Shown here: positions 6,831 through 34,486 of the stretch, in pieces
Layout: each line of letters opens with the position of its first letter
Position numbering within the stretch: the stretch's first letter is position 1
Source of the DNA: Gemmatimonadales bacterium
GTDB taxonomy: Bacteria; Gemmatimonadota; Gemmatimonadetes; Gemmatimonadales; GWC2-71-9
NCBI GenBank assembly: GCA_036559785.1
Contig: DATBSM010000029.1
Location: 1-51,683 of the forward strand
Reading direction: 5' to 3'
Length of the DNA: 51,683 nucleotides
Notes under the pieces: model-generated
The model's database searches: none
Told to the model about the DNA's origin: nothing
What the model saw: the letters and a program-made list of their open reading frames with translations, nothing else
Position numbers and translations under genes: made by a program

Positions 6831-8115
6831 TGATGCGGGCCTTGATGGTGTTCACGACCGATTGCAAAGAGACCGACTCCTGAGACCCGCTGCGTAAGTC
6901 CTTAACCATGATTTGGTCACGCTTCCGTTCGTCCGGCCCGACCACCACCGCGAGGCGTGCGTTCCGCGAGTCGGCCAGCTTAAGCTGCTTGCCCACGACC
7001 TGGGAGCTCAAGGCGTACTCGACCCTGAGGCCGGCGTCCCGAAGCTGGTGGGCCAGGGCCAAGACATGCGGCAGGTCTTCTTGAGTAATGAAGGCTAGAA
7101 ACACGTCGATACTGGAGGTCTCGGCCGGAAGCAGGCCCCTGTCCTTGAGCAGCTCACCCAGTACCACGTCACCCATACCAAATCCGACCGCGGGCATCTG
7201 AACGCCACCGAGCGCGTCGAGCAGGTTATCGTAGCGTCCGCCACCGCAGATGGCACGCAGGGTACGTCCCGCGTCGAACAGCTCGAAGACGATTCCGGTG
7301 TAGTAGGCCAGCCCTCGGACGATCGTGAGGTCAATCTCGATGAAATCGCCCAGACCCATCGCCACTAGAGCTTGATAGGCTTCGCGCAAGGGATCAGCCA
7401 CCTTGGACAGCTCGCCGAGCTCCTTGTCTAGCTGGTCCCACCCTCGAATTTGTGAAACCTCCCAGAGGTCTTCGATAGTGGCTGGCGCAAAAACTTCCGG
7501 TTTGAAGTCGTATTTATCGAGCTGGGCTTTTCGTACGCGTTCGACCTTGTCAATGTACTCGAACGCCTTTCCCATTCCCGACGCCGGCACGCCTCGACCC
7601 TCGAGGATCGACGTCAGCACCCGCCGGTCGGAGAGTCTGACCCTCACGTCGTTGGGCCCCAAGCCAAACGCCCGCATCACGTCGATCGCGAGTGCAATGA
7701 TCTCGGCGTCGGCGAGGGGACCCGGCTCCCCGATCAAGTCGCAGTTGAGCTGGAAGTGCTCTCGAAGCCTCCCCCGTTGCTGCCGCTCGTAGCGAAACAG
7801 CTGAGGGATGGAGAACCATCGGATAGGCTTCCGGAGCTGGCCGGCCTGGGCCGCTACCATGCGGGCGAGCGTCGGCGTCATCTCCGGCCGGAGCGCCACC
7901 GGGCGATCCCCCTTATCGGTGAAGTTATACAACTGACCGACGATCTCGTCCCCACTCTTGGCGGTGTAGAGATCCAGCGGCTCCAGCGGAGGTCCGTCGT
8001 ACTCCTCGAACCCATATCGGGTGGCCACCGTACGCCAGGTTCGGAAAATGTGGGCACGGAGGGCGAGATCGGCGGGGTAAAAATCACGAAAGCCCGGCAG
8101 GGCCTTGGTTTTCAT
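6823..8115 (-). CDS. hisS: histidyl-tRNA synthetase
   Basis: 430 aa. ALPGFRDFYPADLALR, LRPEMTPTLARMV, RYERQQRGRLREHFQLN, GGGRYDNL. Overlaps the proS start by 8 nt. Confidence 0.97.
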   Translation of the reverse strand: MKTKALPGFRDFYPADLALRAHIFRTWRTVATRYGFEEYDGPPLEPLDLYTAKSGDEIVGQLYNFTDKGDRPVALRPEMTPTLARMVAAQAGQLRKPIRWFSIPQLFRYERQQRGRLREHFQLNCDLIGEPGPLADAEIIALAIDVMRAFGLGPNDVRVRLSDRRVLTSILEGRGVPASGMGKAFEYIDKVERVRKAQLDKYDFKPEVFAPATIEDLWEVSQIRGWDQLDKELGELSKVADPLREAYQALVAMGLGDFIEIDLTIVRGLAYYTGIVFELFDAGRTLRAICGGGRYDNLLDALGGVQMPAVGFGMGDVVLGELLKDRGLLPAETSSIDVFLAFITQEDLPHVLALAHQLRDAGLRVEYALSSQVVGKQLKLADSRNARLAVVVGPDERKRDQIMVKDLRSGSQESVSLQSVVNTIKARING

Positions 8116-8154
8116 GGGGGGAGTATAAGGGGAGAAGGCGTGGGCGGGAAGGAA

Positions 8155-9405
8155 TTACACCTCCATCCCCAGCACAGACATGACGTCTCCCACCGTATGG
8201 AAGGACCCGGTGACGAGCACCGTCCCTGCGCCTTTCTGTACTTTATCGATCGCCTCGGTGAACTCTGGAATCAGCGTCCATTCCGCGTGCGCGGGCGGCC
8301 GCTTTGGGTCCTTGAGCCAGCGGCGGAGCCACTCGATGTCCCAGCCCCGTCCGGCCGCCGTGGGGGCGATCGTCAACACGCCACGATCGATCACCTGGTC
8401 CAGCTGCACCAGCATCTCGGGCCACTCCTTGTCGCCCAGAATCGATACCAGCGCATGTAGAGGCCGCTTCGGCTGGGTGGAACCCAGCGCTCTCACCAGC
8501 GACCGCATCCCATCCGGGTTGTGCGCCACGTCGAAGAGCCAGCGGCCTCTCTGGTCGAGCCGCCCGGCGACCCGGGCCAGGCCGAAGGCCCGCTCGATCT
8601 GGGCCGCCGTGGGCCGGTAGGGCACGGGCAAAGCCATCAGAATGCCATGGGCCACCGCCGCGTTGCGCCGCTGATGCGGCCCCACCAGGCTGAGCGGGCC
8701 ACGCCACTCGTAGTCCGGTGGCAGCACCCGGATGTCCGCTGCGGCCCGCCCGTCCGCCCGTCCGCCCGTTCGCCGGACCGCACGTCTGGCCTCGCGGCGC
8801 AGGACCCCCACCAGCTCAGGGTCGGTCTCGCCGATCACGAACGGCACGCCGGCCTTGGCAATACCGGCTTTCTCGCAGGCGATCAGCTCCAGGGTGTCAC
8901 CCAGATACTTCATGTGATCCCGCGCGATCTTGGTCACCCCGCTCGCCAGGGGCCGCACCACATTGGTGCTGTCGAGGCGCCCACCCAGCCCCACCTCCAC
9001 CACCGCCACCTCTACGCCCCGGGCGGCAAAATCGGCGAACGCGAGCGCGGTCGTGGCCTCGAAAAAGGTCGCCTTGTGCTCCAGGATGGTCGAAAGAACC
9101 AGGGAGGTCCACATCGCCACCGCTTCTTCAGAGATGGGCACACCGTCCACCTGAATGCGCTCGCGGAACGAGATCAGATGGGGTGAGGTGTACAGCCCCA
9201 CCCGCCAGCCGGCCTCTCTGAGCGCCGCCGCCACCAGGGTCGAGACGCTTCCCTTGCCGTTGGTGCCGCCGATATGCACCGATGGCATGACCTCGTGCGG
9301 GTTGCCGAGGGTCTTGAGCAGCGCACGCGTCGTCGTCAGCCCGAACTTGATCGTCGTAGTCCGGGGGAAGAGGAACTCCAACGACTGGGCGTAGGTCAGC
9401 GACAT
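8155..9405 (-). CDS. folC: bifunctional folylpolyglutamate synthase / dihydrofolate synthase
   Basis: P-loop HIGGTNGKGSVS, a Mur-ligase fold, and LVTGSFHTVGDV at the C-terminus. accD-folC adjacency as in E. coli. ATG at 9405, with a TTG at 9408 also possible. Confidence 0.92.
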   Translation of the reverse strand: MSLTYAQSLEFLFPRTTTIKFGLTTTRALLKTLGNPHEVMPSVHIGGTNGKGSVSTLVAAALREAGWRVGLYTSPHLISFRERIQVDGVPISEEAVAMWTSLVLSTILEHKATFFEATTALAFADFAARGVEVAVVEVGLGGRLDSTNVVRPLASGVTKIARDHMKYLGDTLELIACEKAGIAKAGVPFVIGETDPELVGVLRREARRAVRRTGGRADGRAAADIRVLPPDYEWRGPLSLVGPHQRRNAAVAHGILMALPVPYRPTAAQIERAFGLARVAGRLDQRGRWLFDVAHNPDGMRSLVRALGSTQPKRPLHALVSILGDKEWPEMLVQLDQVIDRGVLTIAPTAAGRGWDIEWLRRWLKDPKRPPAHAEWTLIPEFTEAIDKVQKGAGTVLVTGSFHTVGDVMSVLGMEV

Positions 9406-31821: not shown

Positions 31822-33311
31822 CTGATCCCTTCAGTTCGGGCCTGCCTGGCCCACTCGCTCGGCGCCCCCGTTTCCGCCGTGGCGGGCGGACGCCGGGCAT
31901 GGCGAGCATGGTCTTCGGCCAGAGCCGCGGCCACGGCGAGATCGAGGATGCGGCCGGGATCGACGCTCTGGGCAAGCAGATCGGTCCGTCGCTCCAGAAA
32001 CTGGATGTCAATCTCGCCTTTCCGGAACGCCGGGTCCGCCATGAGTCGGCGATGAAATGCCTGGTTGGTGGCAACTCCGGCCACCACCAGCTCGTCCAGC
32101 GCCTGCGTCATGCGGGTGATCGCCTGTGCGCGGTCGGGGGCCCACACAATCAGCTTGGCGAGCAGTGAGTCATAGTAAAGCGTGACCTCGTCTCCGGTCT
32201 CCACGCCGGCGTCCCATCGGACGCCGGGGCCGGCGGGCGCCCTCAGATACTCGATGCGGCCGGTGGAGGGCAGGAAGCCATTGGCGGGGTCTTCACTGGT
32301 GATGCGGCACTCCAGCGCCCAGCCCCGCGGATTGAGCCAGCCGGGGTGGACCCGCATGGGGAGACCGCCGGCAATGCGGAGCTGCTCCCGCACGAGATCC
32401 ACGGCGTAGACCAGCTCGGTCACCGGATGCTCCACCTGGATCCGGGTGTTCATCTCCAGGAAGTGGAACGATCCATCTCCGGTAAGGAGAAACTCGCACG
32501 TCCCCGCGCCACGGTAACCGACTGCCTGGGCCGCCGAGACCGCGGCGGCGCCCATTCGCTCGCGAAGGTCCGCCGACACGGCGACCGAAGGCGCCTCCTC
32601 GACCAGCTTCTGGTGGCGCCGCTGGATCGAGCACTCCCGCTCCCCCAGATGTACGGTACGCTTGTCGTCGGCCAGCACCTGGATCTCGATATGGCGGGGC
32701 TGCACGATGAACTTTTCCAGATACACCGTGGGATCACCGAATGACTTGAGCGCTTCCGAAGCCGAGGCTTCCAGGGCTGCGGCCAAAGCCTTCGGATCAT
32801 GCACGACCCGCATTCCCTTGCCGCCGCCACCAGCAGCCGCCTTTACCATCACCGGATACCCGATCTCGGCTGCGGCCACCCCCGCGGCTGCCGGATCGTC
32901 TACCGGCGCACTCCCTCCCGGAACGATCGGCACCCCGGCCTCCTGCATCCGCCGGCGAGCCTCGGTCTTGTCACCCATGGCTCGGATGGCCGCCGGAGGC
33001 GGGCCGACAAAGATGAGCCCTGCCTGCTCGACCGCCTCGGCGAATGCGGCTCGCTCCGCCAGGAACCCGTACCCGGGATGGACCGCGTCGGCACCCGACT
33101 CACGCGCCGCTGCGATCAAACGCTCGATCGAGAGATAGCTCTCGGACGGCCGCGCAGGGCCGATTGCGATTGCCCGGTCCGCCGCGCGCACATGCGGACT
33201 CCGCCGGTCGACGGCGGAGTAGACGGCAACCGCCTCAAGCCCTTCCTCGTGACATGCGCGGATAATGCGGAGAGCGATCTCGCCGCGGTTGGCGATCAGG
33301 ACACGCTTCAT
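31818..33311 (-). CDS. accC: biotin carboxylase subunit (acetyl/propionyl-CoA carboxylase)
   Basis: MKRVLIANRGEIALRIIRACHE, ATP-grasp motif YPVMVKAAAGGGGKGMRVV, EMNTRIQVEHPVTE. 497 aa, with no fused BCCP domain. Confidence 0.95.
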   Translation of the reverse strand: MKRVLIANRGEIALRIIRACHEEGLEAVAVYSAVDRRSPHVRAADRAIAIGPARPSESYLSIERLIAAARESGADAVHPGYGFLAERAAFAEAVEQAGLIFVGPPPAAIRAMGDKTEARRRMQEAGVPIVPGGSAPVDDPAAAGVAAAEIGYPVMVKAAAGGGGKGMRVVHDPKALAAALEASASEALKSFGDPTVYLEKFIVQPRHIEIQVLADDKRTVHLGERECSIQRRHQKLVEEAPSVAVSADLRERMGAAAVSAAQAVGYRGAGTCEFLLTGDGSFHFLEMNTRIQVEHPVTELVYAVDLVREQLRIAGGLPMRVHPGWLNPRGWALECRITSEDPANGFLPSTGRIEYLRAPAGPGVRWDAGVETGDEVTLYYDSLLAKLIVWAPDRAQAITRMTQALDELVVAGVATNQAFHRRLMADPAFRKGEIDIQFLERRTDLLAQSVDPGRILDLAVAAALAEDHARHARRPPATAETGAPSEWARQARTEGIR

Positions 33312-33315
33312 AGGA

Positions 33316-33457
33316 GGGGAAAGATTGGGAAGGAAGGGAAAGACGGGAAGGTCTGGCGGACGCGGAGACAGAATGGTCGGTCAGGTGCTCGAAAGGGAGC
33401 TACGCAGATCACCCCCTCCCGTCATTCCGGTCATTCCCGTCCTTCCCCACTTTCCCG
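33316..33457. repeat. Inverted repeat with 9-mer-array arms (GGGGAAAGA tTGGGAAGGA AGGGAAAGA CGGGAAGGT ... TCATTCCGG TCATTCCCG TCCTTCCCC ACTTTCCCG) filling the spacer upstream of accC
   Basis: Left arm 33316-33352, right arm 33422-33457. About 28/36 positions are complementary colinearly. The right arm abuts the stop (33458) of the upstream gene and the left arm ends 4 nt from the accC ATG (33311). Confidence 0.8.
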
Positions 33458-34486
33458 TCATGGCCTACAGGCTGCCGGCGGCGTGTCTCCAAAAACCGGG
33501 AGGAAGCTGCTGCAGAGGAGCCCGTTGTAGCGTGCGGCGCTGTCGTACACCCCGCGGACCTCGGCGACCCACACCGATCCACCCTGGCGGGTGGCGGCAA
33601 GGAGCTCGGTCAGCGAGAGCGCTTCTGGACCGGGCGGCACCGGACCGCTCACCCTGGCCAGCCGGGACACCGTCCAGGTGAGGGCGGGCGCGGCCGCGCT
33701 GTCAGCTGTGGGCGACAGGCAGAGCGGCCGGCGAGCCGCTACGCTGGCGAGCGCATTCCGGATCGGCAGGGCTGGATCGGTCTCCATGGCCTCGGCCATC
33801 CGGCGGCGATACAGGGAGTCGGTCGCGTATCGCGCTGGGCGGAGCGAAAGGACCCTCCGGGCCAGCAGATCTCCATGATCGTACCAGACCGAAAGCGCCT
33901 CGAGATCGGTTCCCACCAGGAGCACGCCACCGACTGGGCAGGAAGCCAAGAGGTTGGCACCAAGCTCGAGGATAAAGGGCGGCAGCGGCGGGGCGTGCGA
34001 CGCAGCTCGGATCAGGCCAGCGGCGTTCGACCCGGAGTCTTCGAGCAGGACGACTGCGCGCTCCAGCTCGGCCAGACCGCGATAGACCACGCCGGAGTCC
34101 ACCGAGAGCCGAACAGCCTGGTCGAATGCCGTCGCCGCGAAATCCAAATAGAGAAGGCCATCGGGATCTCCCCGGTGGCCCTGGAGGTGCCAGTCACGTG
34201 CATCGAGAAGGTAGAACCGGCCGAGCTGAAACCAGGCGCGTCCGTCGTCGGGCGCGGTGGCGAGGTAGCGGCCGAGCAAGCCAATGGCCATCCGCCGCTC
34301 TCCGGCCCGCTCGAGGGCCGCGGCCCGCGGCGCCACGTTGGGGTCGACCGCTGCCTGTCCGCGGATCTCCCCGGTCACCGCCGCGGATGCGATGGCCAGC
34401 GCCGCCACGCCTTTGCATGAGAGGCGAAGCACCGGGTTAGCTCGGGGTGTCAGCCATGGGAGACGGGCCTGAAACATGTGTGACAA
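33458..34486 (-). CDS. hypothetical exported protein with a TPR-like N-terminal region
   Basis: 342-aa ORF between the carboxyltransferase and accC. It has a hydrophobic segment (VAALAIASAAVTG) and a helical-repeat-like stretch (GRAWFQLGRFYLLDARDW). I recognise no family. The start is the TTG at 34486 or the ATG at 34477. Confidence 0.6.
   Translation of the reverse strand: MSHMFQARLPWLTPRANPVLRLSCKGVAALAIASAAVTGEIRGQAAVDPNVAPRAAALERAGERRMAIGLLGRYLATAPDDGRAWFQLGRFYLLDARDWHLQGHRGDPDGLLYLDFAATAFDQAVRLSVDSGVVYRGLAELERAVVLLEDSGSNAAGLIRAASHAPPLPPFILELGANLLASCPVGGVLLVGTDLEALSVWYDHGDLLARRVLSLRPARYATDSLYRRRMAEAMETDPALPIRNALASVAARRPLCLSPTADSAAAPALTWTVSRLARVSGPVPPGPEALSLTELLAATRQGGSVWVAEVRGVYDSAARYNGLLCSSFLPVFGDTPPAACRP

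Follow-up and report, generated by a model that had tools for sequence, protein, structure and literature searches.

The described systems closest to the one considered here are the heptamer arrays of Xanthomonas (GGGAATC) and Nostoc (GGGGAYT, of the type of the short tandemly repeated repetitive, or STRR, sequences of cyanobacteria) reported in Rehm 2015 (PMC4692102). These arrays comprise 2-26 units each, number about 180-185 per genome and are mostly intergenic, with the 5' side of the G-rich strand close to an open reading frame (ORF); in 70-75 cases per genome, two arrays on opposite strands form a convergent pair (PMC4692102). The number of units varies between close species, and G-quadruplexes (G4) form in vitro, the function of the arrays being unknown (PMC4692102). 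An element of this kind occupies the spacer in front of accC, a biotin carboxylase gene, in a window of 51,683 nucleotides (the whole stretch of DNA that was analysed, contig DATBSM010000029.1 of assembly GCA_036559785.1) from a Gemmatimonadales bacterium. It had been noticed as a hairpin and was interpreted, in an original prediction made from this window, as a device by which accC translation is coupled to that of the upstream gene or sequestered. The comparisons described here indicate instead that the hairpin is probably a gene-less copy of a dispersed intergenic array element, a relative of the intervening sequences (IVS) of rRNA, and not a regulator evolved for accC.

Two further systems provide points of comparison. 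In Geobacter metallireducens, Aklujkar 2009 (PMC2700814) described paired sites on opposite strands, grouped in classes 1-3. Each site has 3-5 tandem units of 7-9 nt (GTTGCTYN, TCTCCGTS[Y] and MTYCTGA), with tens of copies per genome and varying spacing within pairs, and the authors read them, without a test, as DNA sites for global regulators of the integration host factor (IHF)/HU type (PMC2700814). The IVS of 23S rRNA in Coxiella, Leptospira and Brucella consist of a stem of terminal inverted repeats with an ORF for the four-helix-bundle protein S23p in the loop, and they are tolerated in that they fold out of the host RNA and are excised by RNase III (PMC4990558).

The element found here belongs to one kind with the Xanthomonas and Nostoc convergent arrays and with the paired repeat sites of Geobacter. 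It has two convergent arrays of one unit set against both gene borders, the G-rich strand of each always running 5'->3' from its border inward, and the original spacer between them. Dispersed G-rich tandem units, convergent pairs, placement at ORF borders and variation at the junction are all found, as in Rehm 2015. Unlike those heptamers, the unit at accC is 9 nt long (7 or 8 nt in other families), the host belongs to the phylum Gemmatimonadota, and several unrelated unit families coexist in one genome. The class 2 unit of Geobacter, TCTCCGTSY, resembles the CGGAGAGGA / TCCTCTCCG family found here and in relatives; polarity, placement at gene borders and S23p genes were not analysed in that study (PMC2700814). 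With the S23p-bearing IVS the accC copy shares a long stem of terminal inverted repeats, but it has no ORF, lies between protein-coding genes rather than in helix 45 of 23S rRNA, and has tandem arrays for arms where those of the rRNA IVS are unique inverted repeats.

The spacer measures 146 nt from stop to start (Table 1), and its anatomy is largely as first described. The hairpin fills it from stop codon to accC start, a purine array resembling a Shine-Dalgarno (SD) sequence directly follows the upstream stop, and 4 nt separate the end of the 3' arm from the accC AUG. The earlier estimate that about 28 of 36 positions pair is close to the outcome of a repeat search, which gave arms of 42 nt, 74% complementary and 55 nt apart. 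A loop is likewise present, but the 69 nt assigned to it depends on where the arms are cut, with values of 55-69 nt. Read on the minus strand from 33457 to 33413, the 5' arm consists of the units CGGGAAAGT, GGGGAAGGA, CGGGAATGA, CCGGAATGA and CGGGAGGGG, which follow the pattern CGGGAAnGA and belong to a unit family, here called C, with the consensus CGGGAAGGA; the repeat search also registered this arm as a direct repeat in four copies at 9-nt spacing. The units of the 3' arm (33352-33316) are ACCTTCCCG, TCTTTCCCT, TCCTTCCCAA and TCTTTCCCC, with the pattern TCYTTCCC. In the 60 nt between the arms of the accC copy there is no ORF, and hence no S23p gene.

The genome from which the window comes is a metagenome-assembled genome (MAG) of 2.84 Mb in 344 contigs, with 65.5% G+C and 76% completeness, whose assembly breaks at repeats. 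When the spacer was compared with this genome by BLAST, the arms were found to recur at many loci and the loop was not. Tandem Repeats Finder (TRF) followed by family assignment gave 446 arrays in the MAG, and a search for arrays of period 6-12 with a reverse-complement array no more than 300 nt away returned 145 inverted pairs (142 after merging of overlaps) versus 5 direct pairs. Of the 145, 143 have their G-rich array on the 5' side whichever strand is read, and in a first count of GGGAA/TTCCC array pairs the purine array came first in 27 of 27. Similarly, the pattern (GGGAAN4)x2GGGAA matched 122 times versus 0 for its reversed control. At least nine unit families, with units of 7, 8 or 9 nt, are represented, and where a G-array is next followed by a C-array the two share a family in 115 cases and differ in 8. 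Loop lengths are bimodal: 115 loops measure 6-221 nt, and of the 6 that measure 424-660 nt, S23p genes are present in four. A scan for other genes between arrays of one family gave mostly artefacts of neighbouring elements.

These regularities bear on the possibility that the arrays at accC are local by-products of replication slippage, with neither dispersal nor function. Such an origin would account for the differences in unit number and unit variants among the window and two relatives (L026 and L036), for the unequal arm lengths seen at many loci, and for the length variation between close species in the arrays of Xanthomonas and Nostoc (PMC4692102). Yet one 9-mer recurs in paired form at more than 20 loci, pairing is between arrays of one family, polarity is constant, and in other genomes S23p homologues at separate sites are flanked by one and the same unit. 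Arrays that arose locally and independently could not show this combination, and slippage is accordingly a highly improbable explanation.

Variation among the unit families also limits how far G4 formation can explain the arrays. It could be supposed that at gene borders the DNA or RNA of the arrays forms G4 or i-motif structures by which transcription or the stability of RNA is modulated, the hairpin being secondary. The 3' arm of the accC copy, read on the plus strand, is a G-rich array that fits the canonical G3N1-7 quadruplex motif four times, families B and C have G3+ tracts at regular spacing, and related heptamers that form G4 in vitro have the same placement at ORF borders (PMC4692102). 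However, a sequence-level scan found no canonical motif in the arm that is G-rich in the RNA sense, and G3 tracts are missing from family A (GGCTATT, the largest 7-mer family) and from families D, E and F, all of which share the same architecture and polarity. As so many families are without such tracts, G4 potential is not general here, unlike in the arrays of Rehm 2015. The pairing of arms of one family is also left unexplained, so that this supposition appears very unlikely.

The placement of the hairpins is informative about the proposal that the accC copy is a dedicated device, in which the purine array masks the accC start or acts as a decoy for it, and accC is translated only when upstream ribosomes melt the 5' arm. 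The local geometry is what such a device would call for, with the stop codon abutting one arm and the other ending just short of the AUG. Start-masking hairpins of this kind, such as that of the MS2 coat-replicase pair, are locus-specific and conserved. The accC initiation region resembles them in being predicted to pair with sequence that an upstream ribosome would open, but differs in that the hairpin is a copy of a dispersed repeat. Outside the window, genes were called with a crude codon-usage ORF caller, so that distances to start codons are approximate. On these calls, the gene-pair contexts of the hairpins are tandem in 80 cases, divergent in 23 and convergent in 18, and arrays occupy 16-26% of intergenic gaps. 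Of the family-C hairpins, one occupies the spacer of a pair of tRNA genes (C81:6977-7085) and another immediately follows a further tRNA gene (C338:4582-4698). Since all gene-pair orientations and tRNA spacers are represented, the placement is unlike that of a device for the translation of one gene, and in tRNA-tRNA spacers translation is not at issue.

Where the arrays adjoin genes, they do so closely. Of 75 G-arrays, 59 start within 8 nt on either side of a stop codon. Of 86 predicted starts, about 34 are preceded by a C-array at a distance of 0-10 nt, and all of them are without an SD core. For unpaired arrays, the 5' end of the G-strand is the end nearer to an ORF in 108 cases versus 44, with medians of 13 and 107 nt. 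Over the whole genome an SD core at -18..-4 precedes about 31% of the crude starts, versus 12% in a control window; SD use was judged by motif position alone, and the 16S 3' tail is not in the MAG.

The fold itself is less distinctive than the arrays that compose it. In the predicted fold the purine array pairs with the region just upstream of the accC AUG, so that the pyrimidine-rich tract there is predicted to be paired, as had been proposed. Dinucleotide shuffles of the spacer RNA gave a minimum free energy of -58.4 +/- 4.0 kcal/mol, compared with -68 kcal/mol for the spacer itself (z = -2.4), and of the 200 shuffles 2 were as stable; the accC fold by itself is therefore modestly unusual. 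Unlike the fold alone, the array architecture is far beyond chance. The arms are complementary because both are arrays of one unit, and complementarity within a locus is no better than between loci: in the best register, arm identity within and between loci is 0.905/0.898 for family A, 0.884/0.880 for family B and 0.883/0.895 for family C. Nor was an excess of sense-strand G·U wobbles, which would point to pairing in RNA, found among the 55 elements between co-directional genes (39 sense versus 47 antisense). Both tests suggest that there is no locus-specific selection on arm pairing, and both run counter to a dedicated device.

Orthologous junctions provide a further view of how the accC element has evolved. 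Orthologues of the upstream ORF were found in 53 Gemmatimonadales loci, directly upstream of accC in most of those that could be checked, and comparison of 55 loci yielded 51 distinct spacers between the two genes. Their lengths range from -4 to 177 nt, with spacers of 10-22 nt in many relatives. No array is present in 30 of the 51, both arms in 10, a C-array by accC only in 8 and a G-array by the stop only in 3. Most of the ten two-armed spacers carry unit families other than C, the units in relatives including GGGAACGA, CGCAGAGGA, CGGAGAGGR, GGCGGAAAG, GGCGGTAAG and GACGGCGAA. The family-C unit is common only to L026 and L036, the arms of which align with those of the window and the loops of which do not. 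The closest relative, L002 (accC 90% identical), has a different, one-armed array. The original prediction took conservation of the spacer as a paired structure in relatives to be a decisive point; with arrays absent from most of the spacers and the unit shared by two, such conservation is largely lacking.

The same comparison clarifies the missing SD sequence. The accC start is secure because the protein begins MKRVLIANRGEIA, matching Biotin_carb_N from residue 2, and no GGAG, GAGG or AGGA occurs within 20 nt upstream of the ATG, as the original prediction had stated. In relatives, accC is SD-less in 49 of the 51 spacers, an SD-like 4-mer occurring in 2, and this holds whether arrays are present or not; it is therefore not the case that the array took the place of an SD sequence. 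The SD-less state of accC appears to be ancestral and ordinary in this lineage. The tract before the start taken as hisS (8115-8160, minus strand), TTCCTTCCCGCCCACGCCTTCTCCCCTTATACTCCCCCC, had been offered as a parallel; it is indeed C-rich, array-like but degenerate, and without an SD sequence, and it fits the C-rich leaders found genome-wide (C 0.34-0.41 at -25..-1). The conserved operon, the short spacers in many relatives and the lack of an SD sequence do imply coupling of accC to the gene upstream, a point in favour of a dedicated device. Set against the recurrence of the architecture at 142 loci, the array-free majority of orthologous spacers and the SD-less starts that occur regardless of arrays, a hairpin evolved for that purpose is nevertheless quite unlikely, and the regulatory interpretation finds no support in the comparison.

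The centre of the accC element records what preceded the arrays. The loop aligns, at the same spacing, with the core GTCGCTTTCGAGCGCTACACCTCTCCATTCGAGC of the array-free spacers of L024, L028, L029, L030, L039 and L072, retaining a remnant of it, CTTTCGAGC at 33395-33387 and CCATTC at 33376-33371; the arrays therefore sit on either side of old spacer DNA. In the array-free relatives the core GGAGAGGTCGCTTTCGAGCGCTACACCTCTCC..TTCGAGC forms an 8-bp hairpin with TTCGAGC twice about 22 nt apart, and of this the window (33371-33395, minus strand) retains only the two segments just named. This conserved core may represent an ancient operator of the operon, or an ancient RNA element. Across genomes of the genus the GGGAA 9-mer pattern is patchy, with 77 matches in G005, 35 in G007 and 0 in many genomes beside the 122 of this MAG; the GGCTAT 7-mer pattern gave 88, 46, 45 and so on, and controls were about 0 for both patterns. 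The element turns over fast between species. The accC spacer thus contains a gene-less family-C hairpin of generic placement and fast turnover, which is not the cause of the missing SD sequence.

A link with S23p proteins connects the arrays to the IVS of rRNA. The MAG has five genes of the family PF05635 (23S_rRNA_IVP, S23p), and every one occupies the centre of an array hairpin, a layout shared with the rRNA IVS (PMC4990558); no two of these hairpins belong to the same unit family (Table 1). The paralogues are 30-62% identical to one another. Eleven S23p homologues, whose contexts were read from public contigs, carry a matching or closely related unit, at four sites for clade C, four for clade A and three for clade B, two of the latter being one shared site. 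Homologues of the family-C protein (75-85% identical) are flanked at all four genomic sites by CGGGAAGGA / TCCTTCCCG arrays. Those of family A (76-89% identical) have GGCTATT arrays at three other sites, a 71% identical homologue carrying the variant unit AGCTATC, and those of family B carry 8-mers with a GCGGGG or GCGGGT core. At one orthologous site, between a nadB-like gene and lptF/G, the flanking arrays are GCGGGGCA/TGCCCCGC in this MAG, GCGGGGAA/TTCCCCGC in L091 and GGCGGGTA/TACCCGCC in L089. To judge by these contexts, S23p clade and repeat unit travel together, and at the family level both arms change unit together. Recognition of the unit by the S23p protein would be one way to read this. 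The family-C protein matches PDB 2GSC, which is XCC0516 of Xanthomonas campestris. The supplement of Rehm 2015 lists for X. campestris a GGGAATC array, repeat no. 15, which overlaps the XCC0516 start and is 6 nt away from bccP (XCC0517) (PMC4692102). An S23p gene beside an array and an acetyl-CoA carboxylase gene was thus already present, uncommented, in a published table, and the S23p link is not mentioned in the paper (PMC4692102).

This association raises the alternative that the arrays are phased DNA sites for cognate S23p pentamers or for IHF/HU-like proteins, which would mark or insulate gene borders with RNA folding being irrelevant. The presence of one paralogue per unit family, the covariation of clade and unit, the concerted change of both arms at the nadB-like ... 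lptF/G site, the lack of a sense-strand RNA signature and the reading of the Geobacter paired repeats as global-regulator sites (PMC2700814) are all consistent with it. On the other side, the cited literature documents no sequence-specific binding by an S23p protein, shared descent alone could explain the covariation, periods of 7, 8 and 9 bp have no common helical phase, and simple binding arrays need no convergent geometry of one family. Protein-binding sites are on balance an unlikely explanation.

Table 1. Features of the accC junction, S23p-bearing elements and repeat-unit families (locations without a prefix are positions in the window)
Feature	Location	Strand	Basis or remark
Upstream ORF, 342 aa	33458..34486	-	ORF list; TPR_14 E = 2e-4, under curated cut-off
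TGA stop of 342-aa ORF	33460-33458	-	abuts first repeat unit
5' arm (RNA sense), five 9-nt G-rich units, family C	33413..33457	-	TRF period 9, 5.0 copies
Centre/loop, 60 nt, unique	33353..33412	-	no BLAST match elsewhere in genome
3' arm (RNA sense), four C/U-rich units	33316..33352	-	TRF period 9, 3.6 copies; inverted repeat
TCCT + accC ATG	33309..33315	-	sequence; ATG at 33311-33309
accC-type biotin carboxylase, 497 aa	31818..33311	-	Biotin_carb_N, CPSase_L_D2, Biotin_carb_C (Pfam), E 3e-44 to 3e-69
S23p element, family A (GGCTATT)	C330:8267-8789
S23p element, family F (GGAGTCR)	C310:2311-2801
S23p element, family C (CGGGAAGGA)	C311:5377-6022		unit of the accC element; arms of 3 and 17 units
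S23p element, family B (GCGGGGCA)	C56:2098-2658
S23p element, family E (CGGTGAG)	C100:1590-2110
Unit family A, GGCTATT			40 paired loci
Unit family B, GCGGGGCA			41 paired loci
Unit family C, CGGGAAGGA			21 paired loci (about 21-27 across counts)
Unit family D, GGCGGTAA			11 paired loci
Unit family E, CGGTGAG			8 paired loci
Other unit families, GAGTCGG, GTCTAGG, GCTGGGA, AACGGTA			15 paired loci in all; 6 further pairs without family

The accC copy is most simply viewed as a non-coding relative of an IVS-like element, and this view suggests how such an insertion could be tolerated. Pairing of the arms in a co-transcript would give an imperfect stem of about 40 bp, looping out the inserted DNA and bringing the upstream stop and the accC start together again. 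On terminating at the UGA, a ribosome would melt the outermost 12-15 nt of the 5' arm and expose the sequence just upstream of the AUG, so that the opened stem would preserve the coupling that relatives with 10-22-nt spacers may obtain from proximity alone. Incidental translational coupling at accC may occur even if the hairpin did not evolve for it. By analogy with the S23p-bearing rRNA IVS, a double-strand-specific RNase might also cut the stem.

Several observations weigh against placing the accC hairpin in an IVS-like family. The ancestral core inside the loop does not fit simple insertion of a preformed hairpin, and neither the two-sided flanking of an old spacer by one family nor the inward polarity of the G-strands is explained by such a family; for the polarity, a telomere-fusion-like origin, with G-rich strands extended in each other's direction, offers no more than an analogy. 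The covariation of S23p clade and repeat unit could come from shared descent alone, without recognition. No RNase III signature motif was found in a six-frame translation of the 76%-complete MAG. Finally, one position at the base of the stem differs on both sides between the window (AAAG/CTTT) and L036 (AAGG/CCTT); this two-sided change would fit selection for pairing at the accC locus, and also counts towards a dedicated device.

Other classes of element were considered for the accC hairpin. Repetitive extragenic palindromes (REP) and the BIME and REPIN built around them are abundant intergenic palindromes, often found right after stop codons, occurring in lineage-specific families and mobilised by REP-associated tyrosine transposases (RAYT). 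Individual REPs are single imperfect palindromes of 20-40 nt. The array hairpins differ in being arrays of a 7-9-nt unit with unique centres that contain ancestral spacer sequence, and no RAYT/Y1_Tnp (PF01797) match was found in the 76%-complete MAG, control genomes having given matches; a REP or REPIN was accordingly rejected. A miniature inverted-repeat transposable element was rejected too, as only the arms match other loci and the loops are unconserved, with an ancestral spacer core. A scan of 33200-33600 found neither a sigma-70-like promoter nor a terminator-like site in the spacer, and readings as an intrinsic terminator, a riboswitch-like leader or a CRISPR-like array were likewise rejected. 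In Rfam 15, only models of miRNA precursors, that is, plain hairpins, scored, below threshold (27 bits versus a gathering score of 60).

Elsewhere in the MAG the hairpins occur in more varied settings. Classic intrinsic terminators lie inside several loops (C201, C230, C268, C338 and C48). The family-C hairpins flanking tRNA genes would, if co-transcribed, need to be removed during tRNA maturation. The element at C196:3933-4136 is nested, with outer arrays of GGTACGGC-type 8-mers around inner CGGGAAGGA 9-mers, symmetric on both arms. Reading by eye also revealed a tmRNA-like gene with CGGGAAGGA-family arrays on both sides (C118:4240-4930); its 5' end reads GGGGGCGACTTGGCTTCGACGGG, its putative tag frame ANTELAMAA and its 3' end GGTTCGATTCCCTGCGCCTCCA.

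How the arrays spread and what they do can be addressed in a more speculative way. We know of no function or mode of spread for arrays of this class in any phylum. A tentative proposal, to which we give appreciably less than an even chance, is an IVS-like mobile family in which each S23p (Avd-like) paralogue owns, and perhaps recognises, its 7-9-nt unit, and gene-less copies such as that at accC are non-autonomous, being spread or maintained in trans. In this proposal a double-strand-specific RNase would cut the arm duplex from mRNAs and tRNA precursors, leaving accC with a short-leader, SD-independent message.

For accC itself the outcome is deflationary, the hairpin being a copy of a common repeat and the missing SD sequence being normal for the gene and the genome. 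The array class is notable in its own right, as it shapes at least a fifth of the intergenic gaps and puts many starts right behind an SD-less C-rich array. The one-to-one correspondence of five S23p paralogues with five unit families, taken with the covariation of clade and unit in public contigs, leads to a testable hypothesis on these repeats and a widespread protein family. If the proposal of a mobile IVS-like family is true, it would provide a function for the uncharacterised S23p family and would explain the heptamer repeats of Xanthomonas, cyanobacteria and Geobacter.

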